A stretch of 64,000 nucleotides of DNA. Origin: Lytechinus variegatus (Eukaryota). Below the pieces are notes generated by a model. It did no database searches, was not told the origin of the DNA, and saw nothing but the letters and a program-made list of their open reading frames with translations. A program made the position numbers and the translations under genes. How positions within the stretch are numbered: the first letter of the stretch is position 1; each line of letters opens with the position of its first letter. Below are positions 28,370-55,723 of the stretch, one piece after another. The stretch covers positions 58,284,853 to 58,348,852 of the forward strand of contig NC_054742.1 in assembly GCF_018143015.1 (NCBI RefSeq), given 5' to 3'.

Positions 28370-29422
28370 GTATGATGAGCTAACTTAATTAAGCCATGTT
28401 AAATCGTAAACCAACAGGTGTCACTCTTTGCAAGACATTTGCAATTTTCGAAAACCGTCTTGGTGTCATGACACGCTCCAGCGCCGTTGGAGGATTTTTC
28501 TCAATTATTGTTTGCATCTTGTCACTCTGCGGATCCAGGGGGAGCACATCCAGTTTTGAGAGCCATAATAACAATTGTAATGTTGCATGTCAAATTTTCA
28601 TCGGAAAATGTGTTTCCCCCCCCCCCCCCCTGGAAAATCCTGGATCTGCCTCTGCATCTTATGATATTTTCTTGAACATCAAACAAGGGGTGCGGAATTA
28701 CGGTGACATATTATTTTTTTTATCACATATTGGCTAAAAATGGCAACTTAAGGGAATGTAAAAACGGGTTAAATTCGGGGAAAATCAAGAATTGCTAGAA
28801 AACAGCATTTAAAAATGAAAGAAGATTTGGTAACAAAACATCTTGCTTGATCGAGGAATGTGATATTTAAAAATCTAAATACGGGGATTCAAACACCCTT
28901 TGCATTGGTCTTAACGTCTACAAATTCCGCGTTGATCGAACATTTCGACACTGCAAAAGCTTGACCCGATAAGACTCAATGGGGTGAATTAACATCCTGT
29001 TTCGAAGAATGAAAGTTAACTTCCTTTGCCTTTTCAGATATTTATCCCTGATTTACCAATGATTTCTATTTTGAATCGTGAAATTTTGTTGATAAGTTTG
29101 GAGAGTGTAAATGATATTGCCTATCAGGCAAACTTACTGGGAATGTGATTTCTATTTTCCAAAATGAATGCTACCCATCGTTTCATGCGATAGGTGTACA
29201 TGCTATATTATCTTGATATATTATCTTCTGTATCAGGTGTATATTCCTTATATTTGGTTTATTTGAATATTTATGTCATTTGCATTTTCTGATGTTATAT
29301 CTTATTTATTGTAATTATTGCTTATAAATTTTCTTGGAAAAATTGAATAAACGAATGAATGCTACTAATAAAAAACAAAAGGTTATTCTTAATCCTGTAA
29401 TTGCATATTTTTACTGTTAAAG

Positions 29423-29637
29423 AACGTTTTCTCAGTCAGCATCGGTAACCTCCCTCCGTATGCAAAAGTGGTGATCAAGATTACCTACGTCACCGAACTG
29501 GTAGAAGAGGATGGGGGCAAGATGGCGTTCTATCTTCTCGGTAGTGTTGCTCCTTGGTTGCAGGAGGAAATTCGTGGCACAAAGCTTACGGAGGAAGCTC
29601 AAGCTCTGGTGGGAGTTCCATCAAATGAGACCGATAG
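29423..29637 (+). CDS. PARP4: VIT-domain exon (NVFSVSIGNLPPYAKVVIKITYVTELVEEDGGKMAFYLLGSVAPWLQEEIRG...NETD)
   Basis: Acceptor is taaag|AAC (phase 0) and donor is TAG|gtagct (phase 2). It matches PARP4 'DVFTVSVGNLPPKAKVLIKITYITEL...PATVAPWQQD'. Confidence 0.85.
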
Positions 29638-30116
29638 GTAGCTATTAATCTCTGCATATTCCATTATGGTCATGAAAATATAATTTTTAAAAGCATAATC
29701 TTTTATCAAACTGGAACTGATATTTCTCGACCAATTAAGAAAAAAATCTGTTTGAAAAGGAACAAGCTATATGTCATAATTGCTTGTATTACATATCGGA
29801 GCAAGTCATTTCATTTAGAGGTGTTCTATTCCTTTATTTCTCAATTTCCGAATTATCATTTTTCTTGAGGTAATTGAATATGAATTGGGTTTTTTTTTAT
29901 TATGCAGATACTATCTGTTAAATTGAAATTGTGTCCTCGCTTTTAGCCAAACATCTGTGGGCAGATACCGTCTGTTAAATTGAGTATATATCCTTTCCTG
30001 AAACTAATGCAAACATATCACAAGTAATTGATATCTAAAACGATTTGATAATGAATAAATACAAATTTATTATGTCCCTCCTTATGAAAGTACTTTCTTT
30101 TATTTTTATTTTGAAG

Positions 30117-30198
30117 GAAAGAGTCTCTTCAGCTTACAGTCGAGATGCCGTCGGATATTTCAACAGTTCAATCTCCGACGCATGCGATTAAACTAAAG
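30117..30198 (+). CDS. PARP4: PARP4 exon (RKESLQLTVEMPSDISTVQSPTHAIKLK)
   Basis: Acceptor is ttgaag|G and donor is AAG|gtgaga. It matches PARP4 'SFSLTMSIEMPYVIEFIFSDTHELK'. Confidence 0.8.
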
Positions 30199-30612
30199 GT
30201 GAGATAACGTACTGTGCATTTTACGGCCAGCCTCGACCCAAGATAAATTATGTGGCATTGGCCTTTCCTTGTCTGGCATCTAGTCAATGTTTTTGGCCTA
30301 AACCTCGGATGTCTTGATTATTATGCCTTTGAACCTTGTCATTGTCATCGGACGTCTTGTTCTCGGCCTTGGCCTTGACCTCGGAAGTTTTAAGTCTTTT
30401 ACATTTTACCGTTGGTCTTAGCCTCGGTCAATTAGTCCTTTGGCCTGATCAGTGGACAAGTAGGAATATCCTTAAGTTTCCATCTTTTATAATATAGGCT
30501 TAATATTTGAATGTTTTTGTTTTGTTGAGTCTATCCTTTTGGAAGGGGTTCATGAAATAAAAAGAAAAAGGTATGTATTATGATTGTTTTATTACTATAC
30601 TCATTTCAATAG

Positions 30613-30747
30613 AGGGAGAAAATGAAGGCTACCGTCACTTTGGGAGATGGCGTGGGTCTTGGAGATGGTTTCCAACTGCTTATCGGCATCCTCAATGCTA
30701 ACAAACCAAGAATCTGGACTGAGTTTGATCCATCAAATAATTCATAT
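30613..30747 (+). CDS. PARP4: PARP4 exon (REKMKATVTLGDGVGLGDGFQLLIGILNANKPRIWTEFDPSNNSY)
   Basis: Acceptor is caatag|AGG and donor is TAT|gtaagt. Phase 0 at both ends. Confidence 0.75.
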
Positions 30748-31179
30748 GTAAGTTCTCTTGAAATTTTGTTTTTAATTTCATATACAAGCTCCATTCTTCT
30801 ACACTTTAAACAATATTTTCTGGTTTTATTCTAATCGTTCAGAACTGCAATGTACTTGTTATGAAAATGGCCTTAAAGTGGTACGACTGGAAATCTTCAC
30901 AATGTTTTAGAGCTATCTATAGAACTACATTGATCGAAAACAAAAACATGATCCTACAGAGAAAAAAGGTGGTGTGTTTATATAGATTATTTGGCGTATA
31001 ATCTCATGAATTTTATGAGGTAGAGAAGTCTATCTTACTACATGAATGAGAAGAAAGCAGGCCTAAGGGAAATAGGAAATGACGGTGTTGAAAACAAGTT
31101 TGCAAATGCCTACAATAATCTCCCTTAATCTAAATATCATCAACTTAAATGCGCACTGCGACTTTCTTTTTAACCGCAG

Positions 31180-31366
31180 GCTAGTATGGCGGTCTTCTAT
31201 CCGACGATTCAGTCCGATTCGATTCCTGACCCGGAAGTTGTTCTCTTGATGGACTGTTCAACATCGATGAAAGGGGAACCCAAACAGGACGCAAAGAAGA
31301 TTTGCAAAATGCTTCTTCAGTCATTACCAAAGAAGAGCCGTTTCAATGTCATCACCTTTGGCACAG
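31180..31366 (+). CDS. PARP4: First vWA-domain exon (ASMAVFYPTIQSDSIPDPEVVLLMDCSTSMKGEPKQDAKKICKMLLQSLPKKSRFNVITFGTG)
   Basis: Acceptor is ccgcag|GCT and donor is ACAG|gtccgt (phase 1). It carries the vWA metal-site motif DxSxS and matches PARP4 'VIICLDCSSSMEG...VNIIQFGTG'. Confidence 0.85.
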
Positions 31367-31615
31367 GTCCGTAACTATTTTCTTTTCATTGGTCCCCCCC
31401 CGTATCATTACATTCTCGTTGCATAAACTCAAATTTGATAATAACTACCATGGTAACAATACTCAATGGATCAATGATTCAATAGATGTCACCAATGAAT
31501 GGCAAAATTACCAAAATGGGTCCCGCAGCGTAAAGCTGACATAATGGTCAATCTGCATTTATAATAACCATAGAGTACCTATTTATTAAATACTGGAAGT
31601 GTTTTTTTTTCATAG

Positions 31616-31877
31616 ATTTCATTGAGCTGTTTCCAACTGTCGAACCAACTGGCCAGCAGCAGCTCCATCAAGCCTTTGAGTTCATCGAATCTGCAAAATC
31701 CATTGGAGGCAGCTCTGAAGGGTGGCGCCCTCTACGTTCCCTCTCCCTTCTTCCAATGATGAAGTCCGTTCGAAACGTATTACTTGTATCTGACGGTCAC
31801 CTCACCAACGAGAAGCTGATTTTGGAAATTGCCTCCAATTACAAGAACGTTAACAGGATATTCACTTGTGGTGTAGG
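31616..31877 (+). CDS. PARP4: vWA-domain exon (DFIELFPTVEPTGQQQLHQAFEFIESAKSIGGSSEGWRPLRSLSLLPMMKSVRNVLLVSDGHLTNEKLILEIASNYKNVNRIFTCGVG)
   Basis: Acceptor is catag|AT and donor is TAGG|gtaata (phase 2). It matches PARP4 'YLSLLYPARGSRNILLVSDGHLQDE...RLFACGIG'. Confidence 0.85.
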
Positions 31878-31983
31878 GTAATAATATTTAATTATTGGTA
31901 TCTACGGAAGATGTGAAATTCTTGAGAAAAAAATACTTGGAAGTTTATTGACCTAAAATTGAGCAATTCTTCTTTTATTTCAG

Positions 31984-32083
31984 TTCTGCTGGGAACCGTC
32001 ACATTCTTCGTGCTCTGGCAGATGTCAGCGGTGGTGCATTCGAATCCTTCAATCCTAAGGCGAAATCCAAGTGGGAAGGAAAG
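31984..32083 (+). CDS. PARP4: vWA-domain exon (GSAGNRHILRALADVSGGAFESFNPKAKSKWEGK)
   Basis: Acceptor is atttcag|T and donor is AAG|gtaata. It matches PARP4 'STANRHVLRILSQCGAGVFEYFNAKSKHSW'. Confidence 0.85.
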
Positions 32084-33290
32084 GTAATATAAATTTTACT
32101 CCGTTATGTAAACCGGTGTACATAATAAATGGCACAAGTCGTTTTACACCGTGTTAGATTTACAGGGCAAGTTCAACACCCATGTGCGTGATGATAAAAC
32201 CTTTGGTTGTTACATTAAAACTCTTTGGTGTTGTGTTCAAATTCTATGGTGTAAGTTTTATCTTCTCGTGTTTTTTTTGGGACACCAACTGGTGTCGCTT
32301 TTAACACTCAATACATTCTAGAGTTTTTACAGTGTACAGAGAATCCAAATATTTCATTCCGGCGGATTCTGGCTGACACTAGAGGATGTACAAGGACCTC
32401 AGGGAATTTACAAAGTAGAGACACTGCGTATGCCAGTTTTTCCATCCATCAGTTTTCGGGTGCAGCATGTTAGCATTAGAACCTATTGGATAAGTCAGCA
32501 TTAGCTTGATTCTCTGCATGTATAAATGCGAAGAAGAATTCATGCCCATATTGGATGCTTCGGGACTTTACTACATGAAAACTCTCTATATTTAAAATAT
32601 TCTTTCAAATAATTATAAACATGTCTATTAATTTTAAATTACATTTTTCATCTTGGATATTAATTTAAATTCGAATCTTTGATTGATTGATTTTATTCGT
32701 CAAGAATATCACAGGTGATATGAGATACAATGAATTTGAAGAATATCTTGACAGGATAGCACATAAAAGCCGAAAGGCTTGTTTCGAATGGGGTCATATT
32801 GTTAGTATAAAACATTAATATATTAACTATCAACGTCAAGGAATCGACAATAGATCATTGATCTTGGAAAATTGAAAAACTCTTCTTTTTTAAAGTCAAA
32901 ATTACTTTATAAATTATATTCCTAATTTTTGAACTATCAGTACTTTATTTGTTTATTGGAGGGTATGATGCTGACGAATTTCTCTATCTACCTTGATTAT
33001 CCCAGCTTTGATATTTGAAGTTATATCATATACATGTACATTGTTTACAAAAAGCTGTTTTAGTTTCTTCGGTACAAAGAAGAAGAGGACTTTTATAATT
33101 TCGTATTTTCCAGTGAATTTCTACGAATGTGCAATTTAGTGCGCACAACAAACAAAGAAGTACTGTAATGGAATGTTCAGGGGTACTATCATTCTACATC
33201 AAATCTTCTCTTACCCATAACACTTCCTTTCCTAATGTAAATTTTATTTTCAAATTCAATCTTTTATCACAAATATGGCCTCTTTAAAAG

Positions 33291-33476
33291 ATTTCTGCCC
33301 AAATTGACCGTTGTCGTCAGCCGTCTGTCAGTTGCGTAAACGCAAAATGGCGGACAGAAGAGAACGCGGACGGCAGCATGAAACTCAAGGATTTGATTCA
33401 GGTGCCAGCTCAGACGTCTTCAGTCTTTACAGGATCGAAGGTTCTTCTCTACTCACTTGGACCAAAAGTGCAAGAG
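33291..33476 (+). CDS. PARP4: PARP4 exon (ISAQIDRCRQPSVSCVNAKWRTEENADGSMKLKDLIQVPAQTSSVFTGSKVLLYSLGPKVQE)
   Basis: Acceptor is aaaag|ATT and donor is GAG|gtaaat. The exon is 62 codons. It matches PARP4 'SPSCHSVSVKWQQLNPDVPEALQAPAQVPSLFLNDRLLVYGF'. Confidence 0.8.
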
Positions 33477-33949
33477 GTAAATCTTTATCATGTTGGCGGT
33501 TGAGGATGGTCTGAGGGAATACGTTTAAGAATAAACACCAGTTGTTATGATTTCAAAATGAGGTAGTATAGAATCCAATAAAATAACCACCCAAGCATGC
33601 CGACTGTCTGTTTGTATGAAATTAAAAGTATGTAACAAAGGATTCTGGAAGAAACTAGGTAATTGCTGTGAAATTACAAGCAAAATAAACATGGCAGCAA
33701 CAAAGATATCATTTTTTTTTCTTTAAACGATAATACACTGCACAATTGTGCTTATGTGTGTTCGTGAACCTCCGTGTGGTCATTGGTCAGCTTAAATTTT
33801 ACTAATTCATATCTAGATTTACCATAATATAATGTAATGTAGTACAAACTAACCTTAGTTTTATAGACTTTCGCTGTAATAAATTTTTACAGCAACTACA
33901 TTCCTTTCTCTTTAAGGGTAGGGATGCGTCAGAGTGAGAGTTAAAAGTT

Positions 33950-34620
33950 TGTTAACTGGTAAGTGAGGGCGAGTAAGGGTAGGCCTACGAGAGTGTGGGT
34001 GTGTTGGTTTCGGGGTCATTGATGTGTAATGCTATGATTAAGGGGAAAAAAGATGTGGGAGTGGGCATTAGGATATGAGTGATACCGTTACTATGATGAT
34101 AATGTGTGGAATGTAAGGGGGTGAGTGAGCGCTTATAAATAGACTATAAGGTGTGGGTGTGGAAATGTGGGTGAATGAGTGCTATAAGGATAAGTTGTTT
34201 GTAAGTGTGGAAGAGAGAGTGCTAGTATGAGGAAAATGTGTGGGTGTGCAAGCGTGGGTGAGTGAGCGCTAGTTTGAGGATAAGGAGTTGGTGTGTAAGT
34301 TGTGCTGGGTGTGTAAATGTGGGTAAATGAGCGTTAGTTTGAGGATAAGGAGTGGGTGGATGAGCGCTAGTATGAGGATGAGGTGTTGGCGAGTGAGCGT
34401 TAGTTTGAGGATAAGGTGTGGGTGAGCACTAGTATGAGGAGCAGGTGTGGGTGCAAATGCGGGTGAGTGAGCATTAGCTTGAGGATAAGGTGTGGGATTG
34501 TAAGTTTGGGTGAAGTTAAGTAATGGTCTGAGGATGAGCATGATAGTGTGTGTATGTGCGGTCGGGTGTTTAGGTGCAGATGATGTGTGAGAGTGACAGC
34601 ATTTAATTCTCCTTACACTC
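33950..34620. repeat. GT-rich minisatellite (35-45-bp units such as GTGGGTGAGTGAGCGCTAGTTTGAGGATAAGG)
   Basis: About 15 imperfect tandem units. Confidence 0.75.
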
Positions 34621-34823
34621 TCCCAACAGTTGTGCAAACATTTAGAGCTGCATGTAAAAACATATATCTGCTTTGCTTTATTATTACCGCTGTCATATTA
34701 TATCTCTTTTAAATTGCCATGAAATTAACAGGCTTCATTAAAGATACATTAAAGATCTTCTTCCATGAAAAGTAATGCAATTATTGCTTCAAATAACATC
34801 AGTGTTAATTGTTTGAATTCAAG

Positions 34824-34904
34824 GTTCAACTGAATGTGGAAATAGCTGGTAAATCTGTTGAAGAATCACTCAAATCACCAATCGAGTTTGAAGGATCATC
34901 TTTG
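34824..34904 (+). CDS. PARP4: PARP4 exon (VQLNVEIAGKSVEESLKSPIEFEGSSL)
   Basis: Acceptor is ttcaag|GTT and donor is TTG|gtaggt. Phase 0 at both ends. Confidence 0.65.
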
Positions 34905-35346
34905 GTAGGTAGATGTATGCCTATATGATTGATTTGTCATATTTATGCCGAATGAAGCAAAAGTCAGAACTTTTGAATGATGATTGCTCATTTTATCACA
35001 AACATTGTACTAAAGCTAAACAATATTGAATTGAATTGATTGAACTGAATTTATTTTTTTTCTTCATTTCAAACAAATTGACAAAGTGAGTAGGAACGCA
35101 TAATGTCACATAAGACCCCTTACGCTTAACTTTGCGACATCATGCGCTGATATCACATTACACTTTGCTGCGATAATGTATGTACAATATGACTATCGAA
35201 ATTTGTTTAAATGTCTCGAAATTAAAAAAAAAGAATGTTTTTTTAAAACGAGTGCACACCTAATTACTAATAATGCATATAGCATTTCCGTTTATTTGAA
35301 AGCAGGATAAAAGAGCATCGTAGATTAAATGACTTGCTCACGGGCT

Positions 35347-35432
35347 CAGGTGCCGCGGCCGGGGATCGAACCCCAGCCTTTCCATGTATAGCCAGGCGCC
35401 TTAGACCACTCGGCCACGGCACCTCCCAAATG
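35347..35432 (-). ncRNA. tRNA-like sequence: a tRNA pseudogene or SINE head with a 7-bp acceptor stem and a type-II D-loop
   Basis: The reverse complement reads GTGCCGTGGCCGAGTGGTCTAAGGCGCC...GGTTCGATCCCCGGCCGCGGCAC. No canonical anticodon arm can be folded. Confidence 0.4.
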
Positions 35433-35518
35433 TTACCAGGAGCGATCGATTCACCTGCCAGTACATTATCAAATGCAAATATAGGCCTACATAACTACTT
35501 CCTTCTCGTCTTAATCAG

Positions 35519-35701
35519 ACTCTACATCGTCTAGCAGGAAGAGCACTAGTTCGTGATTATGAGTTTGGGTCGTTTCACCAAGACCACGCCCTTCATGAGA
35601 CCCGGATGTATGACCTCACGAAATATCTTACTGACCTCAGTATCCGGTTATCAATCATCACACCGCTCACAAGCTTCATAGCAATCGAAAAACGGGATAG
35701 A
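35519..35701 (+). CDS. PARP4: PARP4 exon (TLHRLAGRALVRDYEFGSFHQDHALHETRMYDLTKYLTDLSIRLSIITPLTSFIAIEKRDR)
   Basis: Acceptor is aatcag|ACT and donor is AGA|gtaagt. The exon is 61 codons. It matches PARP4 'MIHKLAARALIRDYEDG...LITQFTSFVAVEKRDE'. Confidence 0.85.
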
Positions 35702-35839
35702 GTAAGTGAGCTTCGACAAATTATCAATGCTTATAGATTATTCGAATCAAAACTTAAGACGTACATGTATCTATTACTTATTTAATAACAAGCATGCAGA
35801 AAAATATTATCTTGTTCGAATAAATTCACTCTTCTTATT

Positions 35840-36200
<361 letters not shown>

Positions 36201-36339
36201 ACGATTATATAGTAATGATTATTATCATTTATTATCATTATTATTATTATTCGTAAAAATGATATAATCATTAAAAAAAATGTGAATTGACATTAGTAAG
36301 CCATCAAATACAGAACAATATAACTAGAAGACACGGAAC

Positions 36340-36472
36340 TAATCCACATTTTCGGACTTGGTGACACGGTCATTAAAGTGCCCGCCTCATAAACGGGAGT
36401 TTGCGGGTTCGATCCAAGGCTGAGACATACCAAAGACATAAAATTGGGTAATAATAATAATAATAATAATCC
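36340..36472 (+). mobile_element. Truncated tRNA-related SINE fragment ending in (AAT)7
   Basis: A B-box GCGGGTTCGATCC followed by ATAATAATAATAATAATAAT. Confidence 0.35.
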
Positions 36473-36812
36473 GCTTTTATATAGCGCTTAATCCATCGGA
36501 ACGACGTTTCTAAGCGCTTTACAGATATATTATTACCCCGGTCATCGGATTCAATCAGTCATTCCCGCACACAATGTGTGCACATCCTCCACTCCCTGGG
36601 GAGTATTCCAGTCAGTCGCCTGTGAGGCGCACACAATACTGGACAAGCTACAATGACTTTCACATCCTACCGGGTACCCATTTAGCACCTGGGTCGAGAG
36701 TGGCAAAGTGTGGATTAACGCCTTGCCAAAGGACGCCAGACCGCGGTGGGATTCGAACACACGACCCTCTGTTTACAAGGCGAGAGTCAGAACCACTACA
36801 CCACGGCTCCTC
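36450..36812 (-). mobile_element. tRNA-derived SINE (~360 bp), minus strand
   Basis: The reverse complement starts GGAGCCGTGGTGTAGTGGTTCTGACTCTCGCCTTGTAAACAGAGGGTCGTGTGTTCGAATCCCACCG. It is a tRNA-like head with A and B boxes, and the body ends in (ATT)n. Confidence 0.6.
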
Positions 36813-37042
36813 CACGGTACCCTGCATGGCTGTTCTATTTTCTTGCGTTCGGTGTATTAGAATGTAGAATTGTAATAATAACCTATATTACGTTCGGAAA
36901 TGTGTACTGGGCATAGAGATATATACCAGTTTATTGGTATATGTCTCTATGTTACTGGGAGAACAGTTCATAAAATATAAAGCGGCTATCTCGGATAAAT
37001 AAGAAATATTATTATCATTCGGTTTGTAACGTTGTTTCACAG

Positions 37043-37150
37043 AAAACCAAAATAAAAACTGCATCACCAGATGTTGATAAATTACTGTCTATGATCACCC
37101 GTGACGATCTGGAATCATTGCATTGGACTGAAGTTATCTTGGAACAAGAG
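37043..37150 (+). CDS. PARP4: PARP4 exon (KTKIKTASPDVDKLLSMITRDDLESLHWTEVILEQE)
   Basis: Acceptor is tttcacag|AAA and donor is GAG|gtattt. The exon is 36 codons. It resembles PARP4 'ENESPFPDIPKVSELIAKEDVDFLPYMSWQGEPQE'. Confidence 0.75.
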
Positions 37151-37745
37151 GTATTTTCTTTATCTTGCAAAATATATTTATGTAAATTAAGAGAAGTTAA
37201 ATCTATATTATTTTAATTCACACTCTAATGCATGCCAATGGACATAAAGTTCTATGTTTTTTTTTGTTTTCCCGAAAATGTTGAATCGATATAATCAACA
37301 GTGTTGAGCTACCATCATGTCGGTTACATATTGTTTGACTTATTGGAATCTGCATGATTATGATTGAACCACTTTTTTTTGGGGGGGGGGGTGAAAATTG
37401 AGATTTTCAAAAATTCAATTAGTCATGATGTATGACTCCCATTGACATTTTCGTATTTCTCACCATTCAATGGAAATGATTTTCCATGAATTAAAAAAAT
37501 GTATGTGTTTCAGATTGTATGCCCCACCAATAAACTTGTAACTTTGAACATATTCACACAATTCTTTACTTACTATCATTTTGACATCTTTTTGGTCCGT
37601 TTGTTTTGGCCAAACCTTTCTGCAAATCTTCTGGGGTTGTTATGAACTGTTAAAACAAATTATAATCCAAGCACATTTCCATTTAACACTTTTTTTAATG
37701 TACTTATCCTCGTTCATTTTCTTTGTTGTTTCATCGACTCAATAG

Positions 37746-37895
37746 GGACCGGCAGAGAGCATTGTTACAAAAATTCTGAGACAGGCCAAGATTGCTCAAT
37801 CCAACTTCTCTTATGCATCAGCCGAGAAGTACTACAACAGCGCCTTGAACATGGCTAAAGAAAACATGACAAGCATGCAGGGTCTCTTCAAAACA
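37746..37895 (+). CDS. PARP4: Exon in the PARP4 disordered region (GPAESIVTKILRQAKIAQSNFSYASAEKYYNSALNMAKENMTSMQGLFKT)
   Basis: Acceptor is caatag|GGA and donor is ACA|gtaagt. The frame is open for 50 codons and both phases are 0. Confidence 0.6.
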
Positions 37896-38665
37896 GTAAG
37901 TCCATCAGCCCCCTTCCCCACTTTTTTCCCAAAACCGTGTACAAAAACGTAAAAATGACCATCTGATTGTGATTATTTTGCACGGTCAGCCCCCATTTTC
38001 AAAACCGTTCCGCGGCCTCTGCCCATCATGACTATTGTTTGTGTGTAGAAAAATGGATGGTGCCAGAAGGGACACAGCCCTTATCATTATTTAAGTGATT
38101 AAAATGTAATGAAAAGCAAAGCGTAGCAGGAGATCTATATAGGAAAGGGGTATTGAAAGAGAAAACTGTCGTTTGTCACGTGTATATATATATGAAGGAA
38201 CATTTATTGCGATATTTATGGAATTATATATATATATACACATATATATATCTATTCAAATTTATTTATATGAAAACATTATTTAAGTCATTGAAAGCAC
38301 TATAGAAGAGTCATAGTCGTGGAGCATACTATGTTTAACTTAATTGAACTTTTGAGAATAGCGCGATTCCACGTGAGAAAAAAACAGATTACTTCAGATT
38401 TAATGGAAAATAAAATCATGTTGAATGTTCTAAATAGCTCTATCCTTTAATTTATGCAGGGGTCATGGAATACGTATTTCTTTTGTAAGAAAATTTACTT
38501 ATTGATATAATTCTGGTAAAGCCAGGTGAATATCTTGGCCGGTCTTTTGGACTATTTTGTAAGCCCTTCACCCACTTCAAATCCTGTTCTATTGATGTTT
38601 TCCAATCTATGCATATTTTAAGAAAATGCCGTTTTCCCTTTTTTTTCCTCATCCTGTACTTGAAG

Positions 38666-38753
38666 TGTTGCTTGGAACTGTCGAAGTTCACAATGAGGGT
38701 TAAAGGCGATGCAGAGAAGGCATTGCAATGGATTCAGCCAGTCGTTACACATG
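38666..38753 (+). CDS. PARP4: Small PARP4 exon (CCLELSKFTMRVKGDAEKALQWIQPVVTH+G)
   Basis: A long polypyrimidine tract precedes the gaag|TGT acceptor. The donor is ATG|gtaaag (phase 1). It is needed to restore the reading phase between the flanking exons. Confidence 0.55.
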
Positions 38754-39382
38754 GTAAAGTTGTAAAAACAACACGTGTTTCTCCACACACACACTCGCCG
38801 TCACTCACCCATACAGGCATATACATGCGTACAAATTACGCAGGAATTGGCTTCAATAAAATGAGAAAATTGCAGCGACAGAGAATTACGGCATTATTAC
38901 TTATGTAATTATTCAAATGTTCGCCGCCGATCACCCTTTTCAGGATTTTCAATATATTATTGAATCTGGCGTGTATGGGTGCTCGTTTTGGTGTGCAGGT
39001 GGTGTTCGTTATTCTTATTTCAACAATTATTTGCATTAATAATAAGAACTATCATTAATATATATCATGTTGGTCATATTTGCTACTTTTGAATATGTGT
39101 TTGTAAACATCTTAAATGTCCTTAGAATAAAATGTATATTGAGTTCATTAGAAGTGTCAATAAAACATCAGTGAAATCGTAAATTATTATCCCATGATGA
39201 CGAATGAGAGAAGTTAATTTGAAAAATCATTTCCAATTTTAATTTCAACTCCATGATAGAACTTTACTAACTTGTTTTGGAATATTTTGTGAAGTTCAGG
39301 AAAATCTTTGTTCAGCTTAAGAATTAGTTCTACAGCAAGGTACACATTTTATGAAATTTTATATTTTTGTTATCATCAATAG

Positions 39383-39452
39383 TGACTGAGCAAGTGGAAG
39401 AGGAAGGGGAAGATCAAGCACTTGATACAACTGCCCGGGAGTATTCTCAGTT
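39383..39452 (+). CDS. PARP4: Acidic-linker exon of PARP4 (VTEQVEEEGEDQALDTTAREYSQ)
   Basis: Acceptor is caatag|TG (phase 1) and donor is TT|gtaagt (phase 2). Confidence 0.6.
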
Positions 39453-39764
39453 GTAAGTTAAATATATTTGACATATTAATATTCTATTCATACAAATCAC
39501 TATTAACCTTCACATAATTATAGAGCCAAAGGATTATCGATCATCCACGTGAGAACATATCATGTTCTCAAAGGAAAGGGGTGTGTCCAAAATTTTGAAG
39601 TTATCAATCATCCAGTTTTGCGTATTGTACGGAATACTCAGTATACTATATTATTTTTGTTGTTCGAAAAGTAATACTTTGATATTAAGAATTCAGTATA
39701 AATTGACTTTCTTCGAAATGATGAGCCATTAATCTTACAAATCATATTCCCAATTCGCTTCCAG

Positions 39765-39817
39765 ACTCCAAAACAAGGTGCGCCAAGGCCCGGCTGAAAA
39801 AGATGTCATTTCTCGTG
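39765..39817 (+). CDS. PARP4: Small PARP4 exon (LLQNKVRQGPAEKDVISRG)
   Basis: Acceptor is ttccag|A and donor is CGTG|gtacgt. Phase 2 in and phase 1 out. Confidence 0.6.
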
Positions 39818-40610
39818 GTACGTGTCATTACATTTCTTATTACATGTACCTCCCTTGTACTTTCTTAATTCTTTGTTTTGGAATTTATCCTAGTAGAATC
39901 TGAAAACCGAGAATTTCTGAGAATCAAAGGGCTTCGGAAAGTAGATTTATTTAGAGCAATTTTCAGTTTTTATAAAGTGAGTGCAGAAAACCTTTTTTAC
40001 ATTTTCAATAATCAAAATATGTCTTTACAATTTGGCTCCTTTTTTAATTCAGTCTTTGGGCATAGGATATTCATGGGATGATAATATTCCAAGTATCAGT
40101 TATTATAATGTGAAGCGTAGCACATAATATGATATTTTAATATCCTAGTTCTGGGGACATTTTCGTACACTTTACCCATCAGATGGGGACGTCCTATAAA
40201 ACCAGGGACGATTTATGGAGTCCAGATAACCATACAAAACAATTCCTCATCTCATTTCAAACCAATTCATATTAAGTAAACGCATGATTTGTGAAAATAT
40301 CCCGTTTGGCCAATTAAACTCAAGTCGTGTGTTTTAGGTTGAGGGTTGTCCCCGATTGGCGGACTATGTTAACGCTATGTCCGAAAATGAGCCAGGTTGG
40401 TGGATTAAATTCAAAATTTGGGTGTACGAGACCGCACATGCACGTCTCAACTTTGGAGATTAATGAAAAATATCGAGTGCCTGATTGTCAAATTACAAGA
40501 AACGGTGTGTGTGTGTGGGGGGGGGGGGTGTGGATGAATATTAGGGTGCGTGTGTGCGTTTGTAGTGTATTCACCTTACCTCTAACTTGATTTATATTTA
40601 TTGCACACAG

Positions 40611-42311
40611 CTACAGGATATGTCCAGAGAGGTCCAACTGCAGTCAGGCCTATAAGTCTAGCCAAAAAGGAAATTAGAAAAGCAGTTAAATACCAATCGA
40701 GAAGGACATTTCCTTTCTCTTCGTTCTTGAAGCCAAAGAAGAAGGAAAAGAAGAAAATGGAACCAATATCGTTCGCAATGCATTCCGCCGCACCTGCTGA
40801 GAGGAGGCAATTTCGTGGTGGTGTGGTGAGTATGTCGAGTAAACCTAAAGAAGAGAGAGCATTGGACCAAAGGGAAACCGAACTAGTAGATGATGATAAC
40901 AGGGCTACTACACTGGATCAAGCAACTCTAGATGAACTCAGGAGGCAAGCTACCCGACTTGAAGAACAGCTAAAAAAAGAAGACTCACTTCTAGCGTCGG
41001 TCAAAGTGTTTAAAAAGAAGAAATCGTTGGGAAGAAGTTCATTGTTTGGATGGGGGAAAGGAAAAAGCAAACGGGAAAAGACAGTAGTAAAGAGTAAGGG
41101 TGCGACTATTTCTATTGGTAGTGGTGAAAAAAAATACGAAGAGCGGGAAGAAGCTGCTAGATATCTACCATCTGCACGCTTGATGAAGTTTGCTGAGTCG
41201 GATAAGAAGGTATGTGATTCAACTGCAGAGTCTCGCCGGCCTTCACCCCCGGCCATGGATGCGGATGAGGATCGATCATTAGAAGCATCTAAAGATTCTT
41301 TACATGAGAAGGAAGGGGAAGATGAAACAACTTATGCATTATCAGCCGAGTACAGCCCGCCATCATCACCAGCATTAGCTAGGGCACGACCGATTGAGGT
41401 ACTGTCACAGGGGAGTCCGGAAACATCTGACGACGAATTTCAGCAAATGTACAGTCTACTGTCAGCATCAACTAAATCACGGTCACTATCTTCGACGCCG
41501 TCACCACCAGAAGTTTATCTGAAGTATGGGCCAGCCCGTCCGGAGTCTCCACCATCTCCACCGCTGGTACTAGGAGCGGAAGCTCCATTGCCATCACCAT
41601 CAGGACCACCACAACCTCCTCCAGTGCCTCCTACTTCTGGTTCCGTATTGACACGTAAGATGCTGGGAGTGACACGTAGGATGCTGGGAGTGTCACCTCC
41701 TCCACCATTGCCATCCCGCTCAATGCCCCTCTTCTCTTCTGCATCCTCCTCCGGATGCAGGCCCACCAATGCCGGGAGTGTCACCTCCTCCTGCTCCACC
41801 ATTGCCACCTCCTTCAGCAGGCCTGCCAACAAGTAGGAGGATGCCGGTAGTGCCACCTCCTCCTCCTCCACCATTGCCACCCCGCTCAATGCCCTCTTCT
41901 CTTCTGCATTCTCCTCTGGATGCAGCCCCACCAATGCCGGGAGTGTCCCCTCCTCCTCCACCAACGCCACCTCCTCCAGCAGGCCTGCCAACAAGTAGGA
42001 GGATGCCGGTAGTGCCACATCCGCCGACTGCCCCTCGATTCCAGCCTCGCTCAAAGTCATCTTCTCGCTTTGACAGTACTGATTTGAAATCGAAGGATAA
42101 ATCTGTCGCAGACCAAGATATGATGTTCGATTTAACACTTCTTAGTACTATTACCCCAATCATGGATGGTGATGATGATGATGAGGATGATATCATATGG
42201 GAAGATGGTGAACTAATGGAACCAAAGAAGACTTGCAAATCACCAATCATATTTAAAGAGTCAAAGAGGACAGTTTCGGATTTCAACCACGTGATGTCTT
42301 TACAAAATAAG
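40611..42311 (+). CDS. PARP4: Large exon for the disordered region of PARP4 (~1.7 kb, Lys/Ser/Pro-rich). It carries poly-Pro 'PPPPPLP' motifs and an internal ~165-bp tandem duplication. As assembled, an apparent +1 frameshift lies near 41726-41729.
   Basis: Acceptor is cacag|CT (phase 1, consistent with the upstream exon). The terminal donor is AAG|gtaagt (phase 0, consistent with the next exon). The 5' frame stops at 41836. The 3' frame (ORF 41769..42323) runs through to the donor. Confidence 0.6.
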
Positions 42312-42625: not shown

Positions 42626-42710
42626 GATGGTATGTGGTCATGGGAGGCTCATGGACACCTAATAGATGACTTGTTTGTGATCGATTTTCAGGATATATAT
42701 GCATTCTGTT
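42626..42710 (+). CDS. PARP4: Exon in the PARP4 C-terminal region (DGMWSWEAHGHLIDDLFVIDFQDIYAFC)
   Basis: Acceptor is ttgcag|GAT and donor is TGTT|gtaagt (phase 1). It matches PARP4 'EDGFWKLTPELGLILNLNTNGL'. Confidence 0.7.
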
Positions 42711-43206: not shown

Positions 43207-43463
43207 GCCAACTTCCGATTCTACCGTACGTGCGTCAAAATCTTCGCTCCATCCTTCTCACCCTCCTCCTGCTCATCTATCTGGAAGATGTTCTTCCGGA
43301 GGTTCTACCAAATTTGGAAGACACCTCTCCATCTAATCAGGATGCCAATGGTAAATTTGTGAACTACACGGAATGCACAGAGCGCGCGGAAGAATGGTTG
43401 AAACGCCGGGAAACAGATCAGCTACTATCTCTTAAGACGTTGCTATACAATAATCTTGGATAG
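43207..43463 (+). CDS. PARP4: Terminal coding exon of PARP4 (..QLPILPYVRQNLRSILLTLLLLIYLEDVLPEV...ANGKFVNYTECTERAEEWLKRRETDQLLSLKTLLYNNLG*)
   Basis: Acceptor is cacag|GCC (phase 1) and the stop codon TAG is at 43461-43463. It matches the PARP4 C-terminus 'RECLLDLIATMLVLQFIRTRLEKEG...SISRNIPWAFEAIKQASEWVRRTEGQ'. Confidence 0.7.
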
Positions 43464-48130: not shown

Positions 48131-51100
48131 GTGATTATTCCCATCCCCAAAATAAAGAGTGATTTTTATTCGTATAGTAGCAGTTTTTATTCACCTGGGG
48201 AGCGTTCCATCAACAGTTTTGTGCTACAAGTTAATTGTCAGATCTGATAACTTTCCTTGATTCTGTTAATGTGGTAAATGTCGGATGACTTGTCAGACTA
48301 AATGTCCGACAAGTCCTCTCAGGAAATGCTCATCTGGTCTACATTCCATGTTTTCTCTATTATAATGTAAACACCGTAAAATGCAATGTGGGAAAAGCTT
48401 ACAAAAAATGTAATATGGGGCAATCCTATTGGAAAATGTTAGGACCTAAATGTCATAATTTGAAAAAGATGTCCAAGTACAATCTACGAACTGGCTTATG
48501 AAAAGATGACTCATTTCATTTTCAAGCGCCCCAAGCATCAGTGGTCTTCACTGTGGGAGAAGGTTCAACTTTATTTCCGCCGTTCCTTTCTTCTTCAGAT
48601 TCTTTGCTCTTTGTACAAATACACCATCCAATCATCTCGTCCAGAAAGTATTCGCCTAGCTGGGCTATCGTCAGGAAACTTGCTCCTAAGAATAGACCAA
48701 GATTGCCTCCGAGTACGGCTGTATAGGAGGAAGAGTTACAGAAAGAAATATCGAGAGAGGAAGATAGAAAGTGGAATAAAGAGAATATTTTGATTTGATT
48801 TGATTAATTTATTGTTTCACATTCCACAAAAACATACATCTTGAACACAATTATGAATACAAGTCATGATGAAAAAAAATACATAGTTGTAGTATTTAAC
48901 AAGAAAATACAATTACGTGAAATATGAGGAACCTATTAAAAAGCAAAGCTTGTAAACATATAGGTTTGAAAGGGTAATGGAAGAAACGGACAAAAAAGGT
49001 AATCAAATATTTGTATATTAATTCCAATCCGATGTTATCTGTTTATTTTACCTTTTTTTTTTTTGGGGGGGGGGGTATTAAATATAGTCGCATTCTTAGT
49101 GTTTAACAGTGGGTATCATGTATCTAGAAATAATTTCTATTCATGTATCTTCGAGTAACAAGCAATTATGTCTAATGGAGACCTTATCAGTATTACTATT
49201 AAGCAGATAAGAGATGCGCAAAATGGATATTAATATTCATGAAGAATAGCATTTGGATGGAATAAGATATTAAACCAACTGGAATCATACGGAATCGATC
49301 GTTTATAATAATGGGAGTAAAAAATTCTGCTAAAATTTGTAATTCCTTACAGTCGGCGTGACTACGACTACACCACCATTTTAAGGTTTCCCTAATTCCA
49401 GTATTCCGTATTTATACACTCCATTTCTCTTCTCTTTGAATTCATTGATAATTAAAGAAACCATTTTACTGACTTTGAAACAGCGTTTTCATTTTAATGA
49501 AAGATTTATTCGTTCAAATTGAAGATTGAACAGAATGGTGCCTGTGTTTTGCAAAAAAAAGCAACAGAACAGTTTATGTCATTTGGAACACAATTTAAGA
49601 CCTTTTACTTACCTAGCAATGTGGCAAAGGTGTACTCTGGTAACATGTCAATGGTCTGGAAATTTAGAGCTTCGTAGTAAATTGAAACCACCGCAATGTT
49701 TTCGCTGCAATATTTCAAGGAAATATATACTTGCTAAAATAATCCCGCCGATTATGTAAATTTGGTGAATTGATTTGAAACAATAGCACATAATTAAATA
49801 ATTAAAAACAAACACTGAATAACGATGATAATAATGAACATAGTGATATAATGATAATAACAATAGTAATTAGAATAATTATAGTATTGAATCTACTAAC
49901 TCTACATTCTAATGATGATAATAATAATGATAATAATAATGAACATATTCATTTCAGAAGTGATAATAAAAGACCCATAGGGATTTCCATTTCTCTGTCA
50001 TTGAGAGTGGTCTATGATTTTTCAGACAATTCAAGGAATTTCAGGAACATATACAAGGAATGCATTTCTACCACGTATACCAATTCAGTTATTACACCTG
50101 GATGGATAATGGCAAACTAGTAATAATAATTTATGCTCGGCAATTCAATTGCATAGAATGATAAATCGTGTTTCTTTTCTTTCTATGGAGTTTCGCATCG
50201 CGACGCTCGACGGATTTAGTAACACAGTAAATGTATTGAAAATGCCCGTCAAATGACAATAAACAGCTGGGAGGACTTTGTCGAAAATTGGGAAACCGAA
50301 ATACCAGTTTCGCGCCCATTTTCGAATTTGGCGAATACAATATGAATTAATTAATAATCCAATCCATATTCCAGACGAAACTGCTGTTTTAATTCGCCAA
50401 TTTTCGACAAAGACGAACATTTCACAACAAATTATCTATGTTCTCAAATCTGTTTCGCGTCGTGGGGCGGGCTCTCCATTACCTGATGTAATCAGATGTG
50501 AAGTTGGTACTAGTGTTGGCGTAGAGTGCCTCTAGAAATAGTGGACGTAGTTTGCTAGTTGAGAGGGTGAAAGGGTAATTTTCCACGAGGCAGGGCGAGA
50601 AACACTCGCACGTATCTGAAGAGTTCAGGTTTCCCGAAATGAAATCAACTGAATTCAAAAGAAAAATAACAAATGATTAAATTTCATTTGTTTCTATCCC
50701 TGTTACTATATACCTTCTTGCTTCATTCATTTTTATTTGTTTGTATTTCAATACCTTTTGAAAGATAATAAAGGCCTAGTCCTACACTAGACTGTGAATA
50801 AATCAAAACATGGACATTTCGAAATAACATCAGTATTCTAAAATTCATCATAAGCATAATCTGCGCAAGATACTGATCCTTCACTGAATTGTCACATGAC
50901 AATGATAAACCAAACGTCTTCGAAGATATATCTCGTCATCCTTTATTTTGTCACATGTGTATAAGCTATTTAGTACTGCAAATTCTAGTGACGTATCAGT
51001 GGAAGGGAGGGGTGAGAAATAAATACGTTTGGCAATCGTGGATGTTGTTGTTGCTGTTGACAAGCAAAAACAAAGTTTTCTCGTTGAAAGGAAATTATGT

Positions 51101-51252
51101 GATTGCTTGTCATTGAATTAAACCACAACATATGAAAAGCATACACACAAAATGTTATCACAAATCCAGTAGGGTATATTTTTCTACTCTATTCTACACA
51201 CCCGACACCCCTGCTCCCCAGAGCCATGTTCATAAAGCTATTTATGACCTAC

Positions 51253-51463
51253 CTAAAGTAGGATGGGCGCACTCGTGGACGTCGGCCGGGCTGCACACGT
51301 CAGCATCGCCAGGCATCTCGGGAAGCCGACATCCACACTCGGCCTCGACGACCAGTGTCTCGCACTCTATTCTACAAGCCTGAAGAGAGTAGTGGCCGAA
51401 GTGGGTGATGATGTCCCCTCCGTCCGTTTCGCATTCCGTGTATGGCCAGGGCAGACTCGTGAT
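51253..51463 (-). CDS. ASIC-like exon (ITSLPWPYTECETDGGDIITHFGHYSLQACRIECETLVVEAECGCRLPEMPGDADVCSPADVHECAHPTL)
   Basis: Acceptor is ttatag|ATC and donor is TTAG|gtaggt. It matches ASIC1 '[49 protein letters not shown]'. Confidence 0.85.
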
Positions 51464-51529
51464 CTATAATGGGTGGACAAATTAAAATAGTTAATAAAGT
51501 TTATTTAACATAATACTTTACGTACAAAA

Positions 51530-51549
51530 CGTATTTATATATATGTATG

Positions 51550-51592
<43 letters not shown>
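51530..51592. repeat. (TA)n / (TATG)n microsatellite
   Basis: Read directly. Confidence 0.9.
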
Positions 51593-52110
51593 ATTTGCAC
51601 TTTGAACAAAAAATCATTTAAGATATTTTGGTATATCTGTATTTGCCTGAATCATGTCCAGTATTCATATAATCATTAAGTCCCTTTTAGAGAATGGCAA
51701 CATAACTGTCAAATATTTCCGCTTGAATGAGCACTACTTATTTTTAAACAGTTCTGTGTTATATTAAAAAAGTGAGCTATATTTGGCCCTGTTCCTGTTT
51801 TATGTGTAGTATGGCTCCCCCCCCCCCCTTCCGCTCAGGGGGTTATCTGCACCGCATCCATGTTCCCGATTTTTCCAGAAAAGGGGAATCTTTTTTTTTG
51901 GGGGGGGGATGACAACCGCTTCAATTCACGTTCAACATAATTATTCAAGGGGAGAAAATGGCACTTGAAGGGGGAGGGTATCTTTGTGCTATAGTAGCTA
52001 CACTGGTTGAATTGAATAAATTGGGGCGGGGTATACAGCTCTTCCATAGGACCAAATCCACTACTAACTTAGTGACATTGATATTGATAGCTAAATCTAT
52101 GTTTCCTAAC

Positions 52111-52301
52111 CTTCTCATGTCGCATAGAGATGAATGAGTGGTCTCCTGCCGAGACCGAGAAGCCCAGTTCTTTGGGGTAAGGCGGTTCGGTCGGGTAATG
52201 AAACATGATCCTTAGACCTGCATCCATGGCTCCTGAGTCGAGATCATTGCTAGGGGTGTACTCCGGGATCTCGGCGTTCAGGATCAGCTGTAAACCATTG
52301 G
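52111..52301 (-). CDS. ASIC-like exon (ANGLQLILNAEIPEYTPSNDLDSGAMDAGLRIMFHYPTEPPYPKELGFSVSAGDHSFISMRHEK)
   Basis: Acceptor is ccacag|CC and donor is AAG|gttagg. It matches ASIC1 '[64 protein letters not shown]'. Confidence 0.85.
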
Positions 52302-53373
52302 CTGTGGAGATCAACATTTTTTATTTATTCATTCATTACTTATTCGGCATTTTAAAACACATTCATGTATGTATAAAATGACATATATCATCTAAGAATG
52401 AAATTGATAGGAGCAATCAACCCAGTGTGTCAGATGATGGTCAAGAAAGAGAAGAACCCCAATCACTGTAAGCTGATGTCCCTTCGCCCGACCAATCGAT
52501 GCCGCGGCAATAATGATAAAATTATGCCACAATTATAATTGAAATGACAATATAGACAAGAATGATTATACAGAATTATGACGGAAAATCCAAAATATAG
52601 CCTAGTGTATAACGCTTATGAATAAATACTAAAAAAATATAAATTGTTATATCACATTATGTCACTGCTTGCATTGGGTGCTAGCTACATATTTTTCTCT
52701 ATGAGCACCTCCATGACATTGCATTAATTACATCCTTAATCATTAATCGTTCTTATTTTAATTAGTTCAAATGAGCAAACATTCTTCGATTCATCAATCT
52801 GTTTCAACGTCTTAATGAAATGACCAAATATTTACTCCGACTGAATGATTTTCTCGTCAGTGCTGGAACGCATCTGTCCATCTGATCAAACAGTGGTAAA
52901 CGAACGTATTATATGAATAGTTTAATTTGAATATTCATTAGGAATTAATAAAGTGAAATCCTAAGGGAAAAAAATCGCAGGTTTGTTAATGTGCTTATCA
53001 AATCAGATCAAAATATATAGATGACTTTAAAAGTTGATCAATTTCGGTGGATTTTTCTTATAACTTTATCCATACATGCTTACGACAAAAAACTATAAAA
53101 TCACATACGCCTAACACAGCGCAGAGGCGTATATAAAAAAATGACTTAATATTTTTGGGGGCATAATGTTTAAAAATATATATCATATTTTACCTTCTTC
53201 TTTTATTTTCCCCTTTTTATCTTTCTTTTTCTTGTTTTTCTCTTTCTATTTTGTTTTTCTTTCCTTTTTTTTTGGGGGGGGGGTCGAGGAACGTTTGGGG
53301 GCGGGCCCCCAGGCACTCCCCTATCAGTATAGTACGCCAGTGTGATAGGGGATAATATGTCTGGGAGTTTTAC

Positions 53374-53512
53374 CTGAACCAGCTGAATATGAGTGTTTCC
53401 AGTCGACTTCATTTGAGTTTTCTCCTTGTATATTGAAGGAATAACAATTTCCAAGATGTGTTAATGAATGCTGCAGATCGGTCTCCTCGCACGGCTCCTC
53501 TTTCCACAAACA
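53374..53512 (-). CDS. ASIC-like exon (CLWKEEPCEETDLQHSLTHLGNCYSFNIQGENSNEVDWKHSYSAGS+G)
   Basis: Acceptor is tttatag|TGT and donor is TCAG|gtaaaa. It matches ASIC1 '[32 protein letters not shown]...KTMKGGTG'. Confidence 0.8.
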
Positions 53513-54154
53513 CTATAAATACAGGATAATGATATTAATACTCCTAATAATAATAATAACAACAATAACATATAATGATAATAATAATAATAATATATAT
53601 TATAACATCACATATCATAATGTAATGTAATGTAATAGATTTAATAAATATGGCTTATGATAATAAGCATTCACTGTAAAAAAAAAAATATTGGATAAAA
53701 TGACTTTAAAAGTTGATCAATTTCGGTGGATTTTTCCTATAACTGTATCCATACATGCTTACGACAAAAACTACAAAATTTTACCACCACGAGGGTAATT
53801 TTATGTCCAACCAATTTGGGGCAGTATTTTCCCATGCGGGAAGCATATTGTCTAGTAAAGAATAAGCAGCAATTACTTATAGAAAGGGCAAAATTTTCAT
53901 CACACTGGATAAATAAAAACGCCCAAAAGAAATGCTAAATGTTAGTTGGACACATATTACCCTCATGGAGCACTTTTACCCAATAACTTTTAAGAGTGTA
54001 TTAGGTCAGAATATCTCACAAAAAAAATCTTAGCACATGGAAAGCCTTGTTTTCTTTTTTTTATACCGGACAACTTTCAAAGCTCAAATCATGTTGGTTT
54101 GAACATATCAATTTTCATTGGAACAGGAGTGAGGAAAATCGTGAAGTATTTTAC

Positions 54155-54321
54155 CGAAACGATCATGTCCTCTTGTTGGTGGCCAGTTCTGATGGTGAAT
54201 TCAGTCATGTTGTAATCGGGATCCTCCTCCACGGTCGTCCAGTTGACAGAATTGATGAAGTCTTTGAACTCATCCGTATAAAGATCGGGCAGAAGAAGAT
54301 TATAATCTTCATCTACGATAC
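54155..54321 (-). CDS. ASIC-like exon (SIVDEDYNLLLPDLYTDEFKDFINSVNWTTVEEDPDYNMTEFTIRTGHQQEDMIVS)
   Basis: Acceptor is ttacag|GT and donor is TCG|gtaaaa. It matches ASIC1 '[23 protein letters not shown]'. Confidence 0.75.
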
Positions 54322-55723
54322 CTGTAACAAATAATAATGATTACACCATCATATTTCATTGGCTCAAATGTGGCAAAATGTGCATGCCAATTGGAATATC
54401 GATGACCTTCTAATCTGAGATATCAAACATACGACTTTTGTGAAAGTTTGATCGGATCAAGAAGCTCGGGAATTATTAATAATAAGTTATAAGGAATAAG
54501 ATAGGGAAGAAGATTCCACAACTCTCAAAAGATGATCTACCGGAATGTTTTTCTTCCTTGTTTCAAAGAAACAACCTCATCCATTCTTACCCTACCCGCC
54601 AAAGGGACTCATTTCACCTTCCACGTACTCGTACGTTATTTGCTCAAAGAACAATTGTATTCAAAGGACCAAGGCTTTGGAATAATCTTCCAAGCGAAAT
54701 AACTAGCTGTTTATCTCTAAACTTGTATGTTTAAATGTAAACTGAAATCGTTTCTTTTGTCCAGTTATGGACACCGTTAAGACGCACTGGATGAATAATG
54801 TATTTGATTTGTACCATTTTAAAGGTATAATGTGGTATAGTTTTTTATTCATTTATTTTTTTCATTCTTCGCTCACCCCCCTCCTATATTTCACATTGTC
54901 CACTTTTCCTCTAATTCTTTACCCCTTGATTTTGCGCTAATGTTTGGCTTTTCCTTTGTAGTCTAATTCTTCTTTAGTGTCCGATCTCCTTACGTACTTC
55001 ATAATTACTTTAAGAAACCTGTAGACACTACAAGCTCTGCTTTTCATGCAGGTTCCTTCATATTTCACTTGCTGCCATTATCTTTGTACTTTCTATGAAA
55101 CCAAATGTATTTCTTGTATTATGTTATTATTTTATTATCTTGTGAAGTATGAAAATAAATTCAATTCAATTCAAATGAAATACTGTCCGACGTCGACGAC
55201 CCGCTCACGGCCGTTCTATATGATTATGTACATAACCACCCGGAAATTAGAGAATAGTAAAGTGCCACAATGGCCCTTTTTAAATGTTTTACTTTCTCTA
55301 TACCTTTGATTTGATTTTTGGACGAAAATGTCAATTGTTATTTATGCCTATTTTTTTCTTTTCATTCTGTTCGATCGTTTGGATATAACTGACTTTAACG
55401 TGATCGGAAATAAGTTCACATAATTTCATTCCCTTCATTGAAACATATAAACACAATAGATAATAACAATGGTCGCTACCACGTAAGACAAAAACAAATA
55501 AGCAAAACAAAACACAAGAGGTGAAAAGAGGAAAGTTCAGCTGAATCAGATATTAATTTCTTATCTGGATAGTACGGCTTTTTTCCATATTGTACAATGT
55601 TTTTTTTGTGATCGACATTGTTTAACTAAAATAAAACTAGGTATCCGATCGATCGGTCGATCGATCAGGATTTTTTTATTAGGGCCTATTTCGGATCCAG
55701 CATGCGTATAAATTCGTCAATAC

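Follow-up and report, generated by a model that had tools for sequence, protein, structure and literature searches.

In the sea urchin Lytechinus variegatus, the gene for PARP4 (vault PARP) carries, in its largest coding exon, a tandem duplication of a proline-rich module of 54 codons, and the first copy of this module contains one cytosine in excess that breaks the reading frame. The extra base is probably a homopolymer consensus error of the assembly, a reading to which we assign a probability of around 60% on the basis of prior odds; the real gene would then read RSMPSSLLHPPPDAGPPMPGVSPP through both copies and on into the C-terminal tail. The duplicated module lies in a disordered linker of about 40% proline, and the whole is an unremarkable case of lineage-specific tandem duplication in a PARP4 exon that is known to be hypervariable. 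Positions are those of the window, the whole 64,000-nucleotide stretch of DNA that was analysed, and the features of the PARP4 gene described here are all on the + strand.

Fragments of open reading frame on the + strand, upstream of the large exon, match the PARP, VIT and VWA families of Pfam, and their best homologues in a word-indexed protein search were the PARP4 proteins of fish, corals and molluscs, with 46-60% identity over the VIT and VWA domains. When PARP4 proteins from fish, corals and molluscs were used as tblastn queries, about 15 exons, each in a single frame, were found at 22192-35725 in collinear order with the PARP4 of these animals. The corrected C-terminal half of the protein was also used as query in an exhaustive HMMER search against 1.84 billion representatives, and this returned two proteins only, XP_041460179.1 and XP_030842424.1 of S. 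purpuratus. The former (1759 aa) is 97% identical to the corrected C-terminal half over one stretch and bears the title 'LOW QUALITY PROTEIN: protein mono-ADP-ribosyltransferase PARP4-like'; it maps exactly onto the window in 26 coding pieces (21162-43460), and therefore the window is that locus. It contains a PARP catalytic domain (PF00644, E 1.3e-20) and a VIT domain (PF08487, E 5e-35) followed by a VWA domain (PF13768, E 7e-17; PF00092, E 8e-10), and it is the upstream 22 coding pieces (21162-39816), placed by this exact mapping and by Pfam, that encode the three. The first-pass annotation had called the gene PARP4; the Pfam domains, the closest homologues and the PARP4-like RefSeq model all agree with this, and on its sequence the gene is best regarded as that of the vault PARP. 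A further word-indexed protein search, with the corrected exon as query, gave no match, but the index evidently lacks these echinoderm proteins and its silence is not absence. A look-up of exact proteins, using the RefSeq model and the two four-C open reading frames, returned no independent DNA of the locus on record.

Many PARP4 proteins have an N-terminal BRCT domain, whereas the XP_041460179.1 model is without one. The first residues of the model (MWNILYDRKHKQ, at 21162) lie immediately ahead of the PARP regulatory/catalytic part, and no BRCT match was found in the model with Pfam; tblastn with a BRCT-containing coral PARP4 likewise gave nothing upstream of 22192. The N-terminus of the model may be incomplete, or BRCT exons may be present upstream (17500-21100).

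The biggest of the 26 coding pieces is an exon of 1701 nt (40611-42311), with an acceptor (cacag/CT) at 40609-40610 and a donor (AAG/GTAAGT) at 42312, onto which residues 1080-1646 of XP_041460179.1 map. No Pfam domain was found in this exon, which encodes a disordered proline-rich linker running from the VWA-containing body of the protein to its C-terminal tail. The upstream frame (codon starts equal to 2 modulo 3) is open from 40586 and is terminated by a TAG at 41834-41836, as translation confirms for the stop at 41836 given in the first-pass annotation. The same annotation was right in stating that the downstream frame (codon starts equal to 0 modulo 3) stays open to the donor at 42311, but not in opening it at 41769, which is the position of its first ATG; following a TGA at 41670-41672 this frame is open from 41673 up to the GTAAGT donor after 42311.

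Within the exon, Tandem Repeats Finder detects an array with a period of 162 at 41696-42022, of 2.0 copies with 92% matches and a score of 561, and a second row prolongs this to 2.2 copies with an end at 42066. Copy 1, with the extra C, lies at 41696-41861 and copy 2, in frame with the downstream exons, at 41862-42022, both delimited by Tandem Repeats Finder, gapless repeats and alignment; a partial, diverged third copy follows at 42023-42066, from the 2.2-copy row and alignment. The unit of the tandem duplication is 162-166 bp in length, and the spacing between the copies, taken from gapless repeat families, drops along the unit from 166 to 165 to 162 nt. In a MAFFT pairwise alignment copies 1 and 2 are 93% identical (about 7% of their bases differ) and are separated by three indels: one of 6 nt and one of 3 nt, both multiples of three that keep the frame, and one of a single C. 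The earlier claim of a duplicated unit of about 165 bp in the proline-rich exon of PARP4 is borne out by these results. Just upstream of the array is a 21-bp tandem repeat (41649-41696; 2.3 copies, 92% matches with Tandem Repeats Finder) that encodes RKMLGVT / RRMLGVS, a short version of the RRM(P/L)(V/G)V motif of the larger unit. A short inverted repeat, CTGCATxCTCCTCxGGATGCAG, is also present in each copy (41740-41761 and 41905-41926), its stem being 7-8 bp long. This element is the main contributor to the local RNA fold, and its stability is ordinary (z = -1.49).

Alignment of the copies upholds the difference first noticed between them, in that copy 1 has CCCC at 41726-41729 and copy 2 has CCC at 41892-41894. 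At the corresponding position of a three-way alignment, the third copy, partial and diverged, shows three nucleotides (TCA). Since copy 2 and the partial copy 3 agree in this length, the extra C is derived and unique to copy 1. Copy 2 reads RSMPSSLLHSPLDAAPPMPGVSPP, in frame with the downstream exons, and for copy 1 to yield its counterpart, RSMPSSLLHPPPDAGPPMPGVSPP, one C of the run has to be left out; with this base removed, a single open frame of 575 codons results. From the three-way alignment and the gain in protein identity between the two copies, which is 43/54 with one C dropped compared to 30/54 with the RefSeq patch, we infer that the run at 41726-41729, one base in excess, is the true site of the frameshift. 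The coding pieces other than the large exon map without disruption, and the extra C is the sole disruption of an otherwise intact 26-piece coding sequence. Over all codon positions, the substitutions between copy 1 and copy 2 are 9 non-synonymous versus 2 synonymous, a count that is uninformative on whether copy 1 still codes. Because these differences are mostly non-synonymous, the exact sequence of the repeat is under weak constraint.

In the RefSeq model the large exon is read in the upstream frame at 40610-41788 and in the downstream frame at 41790-42311; according to the mapping of XP_041460179.1 it is base 41789, 60 nt downstream of the C-run, that is omitted. We take this omission to be the RefSeq correction of the type 'deleted 1 base in 1 codon', and a one-base correction of this kind explains the LOW QUALITY label. 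The case is like other corrected models of the RefSeq 'LOW QUALITY PROTEIN' class (NCBI Gnomon), since XP_041460179.1 carries the label and one genomic base is omitted from it. However, the model patches the frame at 41789 whereas the internal repeat points to 41726-41729, and on this comparison the patch is misplaced and belongs at the C-run. As a consequence of the distance between patch and indel, XP_041460179.1 contains 20 out-of-frame residues, LFSSASSSGCRPTNAGSVTS in place of SSLLHPPPDAGPPMPGVSPP, so that the model reads ...RSMP-LFSSASSSGCRPTNAGSVTS-PAPPLPPP... at this point.

An assembly indel, a polymorphism and a small intron had been left as causes by the first-pass annotation; all three are formally possible, and the intron is ranked last. 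A consensus error is favoured by the nature of the change, a difference in homopolymer length inside a near-identical tandem repeat, and by the fact that the gene is otherwise intact and its part downstream of the break is conserved in S. purpuratus. The assembly was presumably based on long reads. Against an error, a C-run of four bases is short to have caused one, and the other ~5 kb of PARP4 coding sequence is without an error of this kind. At 40505-40530, about 80 nt upstream of the acceptor of the large exon, a (GT)n run leads into a G12 homopolymer, which is far more error-prone than the C4 run.

The extra C could instead be a real germline slippage mutation on the assembled haplotype, in other words a segregating frameshift allele of PARP4, presumably a rare null. 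Although we hold this tentatively and at well below even odds, such a slippage allele is quite plausible, given the high level of polymorphism in sea urchins and an exon that changes by indels. Slippage in a C-run is a natural type of mutation, and here it would have occurred in an indel-rich and weakly constrained exon, as judged by the three inter-copy indels and the excess of non-synonymous changes; there is also no second frame error in the coding sequence of the window. As it stands with four C, the gene gives a product of 1487 residues (in the numbering of the model), 272 residues short, which under a real allele would be a protein that is devoid of copy 2 and ends before the acidic patch and the C-terminal tail. 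Another outcome would be degradation of the mRNA, because the TAG at 41834-41836 precedes the next exon junction by 475 nt. The whole of the downstream part is undamaged and conserved in S. purpuratus, which argues against a real allele, since the mutation would then have to be very recent. Furthermore, as a matter of general knowledge, the prior for a true frameshift, per gene and per haplotype, is low compared to that for the residual homopolymer errors of long-read assemblies. The length variation documented for the largest PARP4 exon (PMC4038475), on the other hand, is in keeping with a real allele.

It is improbable that the four C are real and that the gene works, with copy 1 either spliced out as an exitron of 163 or 166 nt or bypassed by +1 slippage on CCC-C. 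In the case of splicing, which also has little chance of being correct, copy 1 would be a small intron or exitron, absent from the mRNA, with the frame restored and one full proline module left. The best candidate for a cryptic intron is 41655-41817 or 41655-41820 (163 or 166 nt), with donor CAC/GTAAGA and acceptor CAG, and where the two open frames overlap, GT..AG pairs of length 3n+1 are numerous. For comparison, 14 introns of PARP4 were mapped, with splice sites picked by compatibility with phase and orthologues; these are 106-2042 nt in length, with a GC content of 0.25-0.39 and summed splice scores of 5.5-17.1, and many of them have weak consensus sites. The gene does therefore have an intron as short as 106 nt, and the scores of the candidates (sum 15-17) equal or exceed those of the mapped introns. 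However, the GC content of the candidates is 58-62%, and 0.60 in the best of them, versus 25-39% in the 14 introns, which is not an intron-like composition, and the candidate sequence is 92% identical to the coding copy 2, in which identical sites are present and necessarily exonic. The high acceptor scores, and the apparent 'polypyrimidine tracts', are a by-product of the CCT and CCA codons for proline. The resemblance to known exitrons is in the presence of GT..AG sites within a long coding exon, and the difference is in the exon-like composition found here. It also weighs against an exitron that RefSeq used a one-base patch and no intron, which, given the usual behaviour of the NCBI pipeline, presumably means that no RNA-seq junction was seen. 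If copy 1 were spliced out or slipped over, a frameshift would have turned one coding copy of a repeat into an intron, and PARP4 isoforms with 1 or 2 proline-rich docking modules would result. A shorter 'intron' of 25 nt (41655-41679; GTAAG..TAG, 3n+1) was also considered and rejected; it corresponds to the 21-bp coding repeat, and the resulting frame reads CWECHLLHHC..., unlike copy 2.

Programmed frameshifting, in which ribosomes would shift +1 on CCC-C so that some full-length protein is made from a real four-C run, was rejected as having next to no chance: CCC-C, a classic +1-prone site for proline tRNA, is present and the shift needed from the upstream to the downstream frame is indeed +1, but a stimulator, whether a slow A-site codon or a downstream structure, is lacking, as the codon that follows is an ordinary CTC, so neither a stop nor a rare codon occupies the A site, the 101 nt downstream are folded no more stably than shuffled versions of them (z = -1.49; 13/200 fold as well), and neither copy 2 nor the S. 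purpuratus relative requires such a shift. Any cause other than an error, a real allele, an exitron or a programmed +1 shift is likewise given only a few parts in a hundred at the very most.

The downstream frame continues across the end of the large exon. Its phase-0 donor after 42311 joins an exon at 42626-42710 and then one at 43207-43463, both with canonical splice sites. The penultimate coding exon (DGMWSWEAHGHLIDDLFVIDFQDIYAFC) is in phase with the downstream frame, and the last, which includes the stop TAG (43461-43463), encodes a tail that is conserved with S. purpuratus. Together these two exons make up the C-terminal tail of 147 residues, which is predicted by AlphaFold to be a helical domain (pLDDT 79.6, pTM 0.77) and is 44% identical to the tail of S. 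purpuratus XP_030842424.1 (E 1e-32, 149 residues). In human PARP4 it is the last 163 residues (1562-1724) that bind MVP (PMC2169495). The match between the urchin tail and the fish PARP4 tail was non-significant both with BLASTP (E 5) and with hhalign (E 0.44), the latter of which picked out a positionally equivalent DG-W...DLF motif in the two. For the urchin tail there was no Pfam family, no sequence match in the PDB and no significant Foldseek match in the PDB. A profile of the two urchin tails in the word-indexed search retrieved nothing, not even its own member XP_030842424.1, which the index evidently lacks.

XP_030842424.1, a protein of 496 aa automatically named 'formin-like protein 20', matches the large exon together with the tail (E 2.5e-36). 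Its similarity to the 5' part of the large exon is 31% over 111 residues (E 4e-8), while its proline-rich middle, composed of PPGAAPP-type repeats, does not align with the Lytechinus exon, and no counterpart alignable to the 162-bp unit was found in it. In the S. purpuratus protein a single frame runs through its own, different proline repeats and reaches the same tail. Pfam detected neither FH2 nor any other formin domain in XP_030842424.1; judging by these alignments, the protein may correspond to a 3' piece of the PARP4 gene in S. purpuratus that has been split off, and not to a formin, and its name may be derived from its polyproline content. The lineages of Lytechinus and S. purpuratus split about 45 My ago (cited in PMC11586663).

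The large exon is comparable to exon 30 of human PARP4, the largest exon of that gene, which is almost wholly disordered, evolves rapidly and is under recurrent positive selection (Daugherty et al. 2014, PMC4038475); among vertebrates both the sequence and the length of the largest PARP4 exon vary widely (PMC4038475). As in the human gene, the Lytechinus exon is the largest and separates the VWA-containing body from the C-terminal tail. Also as in the human gene, it is poorly conserved between conserved flanks, only the flanks being alignable between Lytechinus and S. purpuratus, and its length shifts through repeats and indels. The two cases differ in that the published one concerns vertebrates and is based on dN/dS, whereas that of Lytechinus is a lineage-specific tandem duplication in an echinoderm, and the equivalence of the exons is one of position, not of alignment.

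The duplicated module of 54 codons can be written as RRM(P/L)(V/G)V-polyPro-LP-RSMPSSLLH-PxDA-PPMPGVS-polyPro-AGLPTS. Proline makes up 40% of the 165 residues of the repeat region, which has runs of PPPPPPP and of PPPPP, three occurrences of PPLP and two of RRMPVVP, a class I SH3 consensus. Going by these motifs, the proline modules are probably docking sites for domains of the SH3, WW or profilin/EVH1 type. Mouse Parp4 and Mvp were inhibitor-sensitive matches in a VASP-EVH1 pull-down (PMC9581539, Table 2), where they were classed as not known interactors and where such matches 'will need to be verified' (PMC9581539). By analogy the pull-down would fit a docking role of the proline-rich region, and it proves nothing for the urchin protein.

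The first-pass annotation had described the motif as formin FH1- or WASP-like. This holds for composition, that is, for the 40% proline and the PPLP and RRMPVVP motifs, but not for architecture, as Pfam found no FH2, WH1 or WH2 domain. The likeness to formin FH1 and to the proline-rich regions of the WASP family consists of repeated polyproline tracks, PPLP, xPPPPP and RRMPVVP. In formins, however, FH2 follows directly C-terminal, and Pfam found none in the large exon, the tail, XP_041460179.1 or XP_030842424.1; in WASP/WAVE proteins a WH1 domain or GBD lies upstream and a WH2-central-acidic module downstream, and these too were absent here from the Pfam results. After the repeat, the only part of a WASP-like module that is present is an acidic stretch with one Trp. 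The resemblance to formins and WASP is limited to composition.

This acidic run with a single Trp (DGDDDDEDDIIWEDGE, partly a GAT x9 microsatellite) is found at 42165-42212, after the proline repeats. At a comparable place, by eye, S. purpuratus has DDDDVSSESDIWEDDEE and fish PARP4 has DDDDDDDDVDDGWVDEDEE. The acidic-Trp run could be a conserved motif, reminiscent of the Arp2/3-binding 'A' motifs.

The biological weight of the frame break is small: the problem is already in the annotation, and the indel-driven evolution of the largest PARP4 exon has been published. The LOW QUALITY flag and the patch have placed the frame problem on public record. What is new is at the level of curation only, namely that the patch belongs at 41726-41729 and that 'formin-like protein 20' matches the 3' part of PARP4. 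If the four-C allele were real, it would be a natural PARP4 allele without the presumed vault-binding tail, of modest interest for vault biology.

Several other features were observed in the window. A microsatellite-like tract of about 360 nt (35848-36209), which reads as poly-Val or poly-Ser depending on the frame, lies in the intron between the exons at 35519-35701 and 37043-37150. Stretches resembling tRNA-derived SINEs are present at 36514-36864 and at about 44400; neither ARAGORN nor Rfam called an RNA gene in them, and there were no tRNA or Rfam matches in the 64-kb window as a whole. The neighbouring gene, at 50482-56647 on the - strand, encodes an amiloride-sensitive sodium channel of the ASC/ENaC/ASIC family; when six of its exon ORFs are concatenated, they match PF00858 in one stretch (E 2.7e-74) with the frame intact. 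Recurring ORF fragments that share PYLG.GI.GV.MAGG occur on both strands (about 1494-1691, 9835-10090 and 12116-12445, among others), and these suggest several copies of an interspersed repeat. Finally, open reading frames at about 15082-15856 (+) and 16589-17112 (-) have near-identical translations, for example ISLEPNIVHINVLSDTQQIYKKLTKEYVSFSCRAPSKLD compared to ISLEPNIMHINVLSDTRQNYKKLTQEYVSFSCRAPSKLD, and this opposite-strand pair would indicate an inverted duplication of about 1-2 kb.
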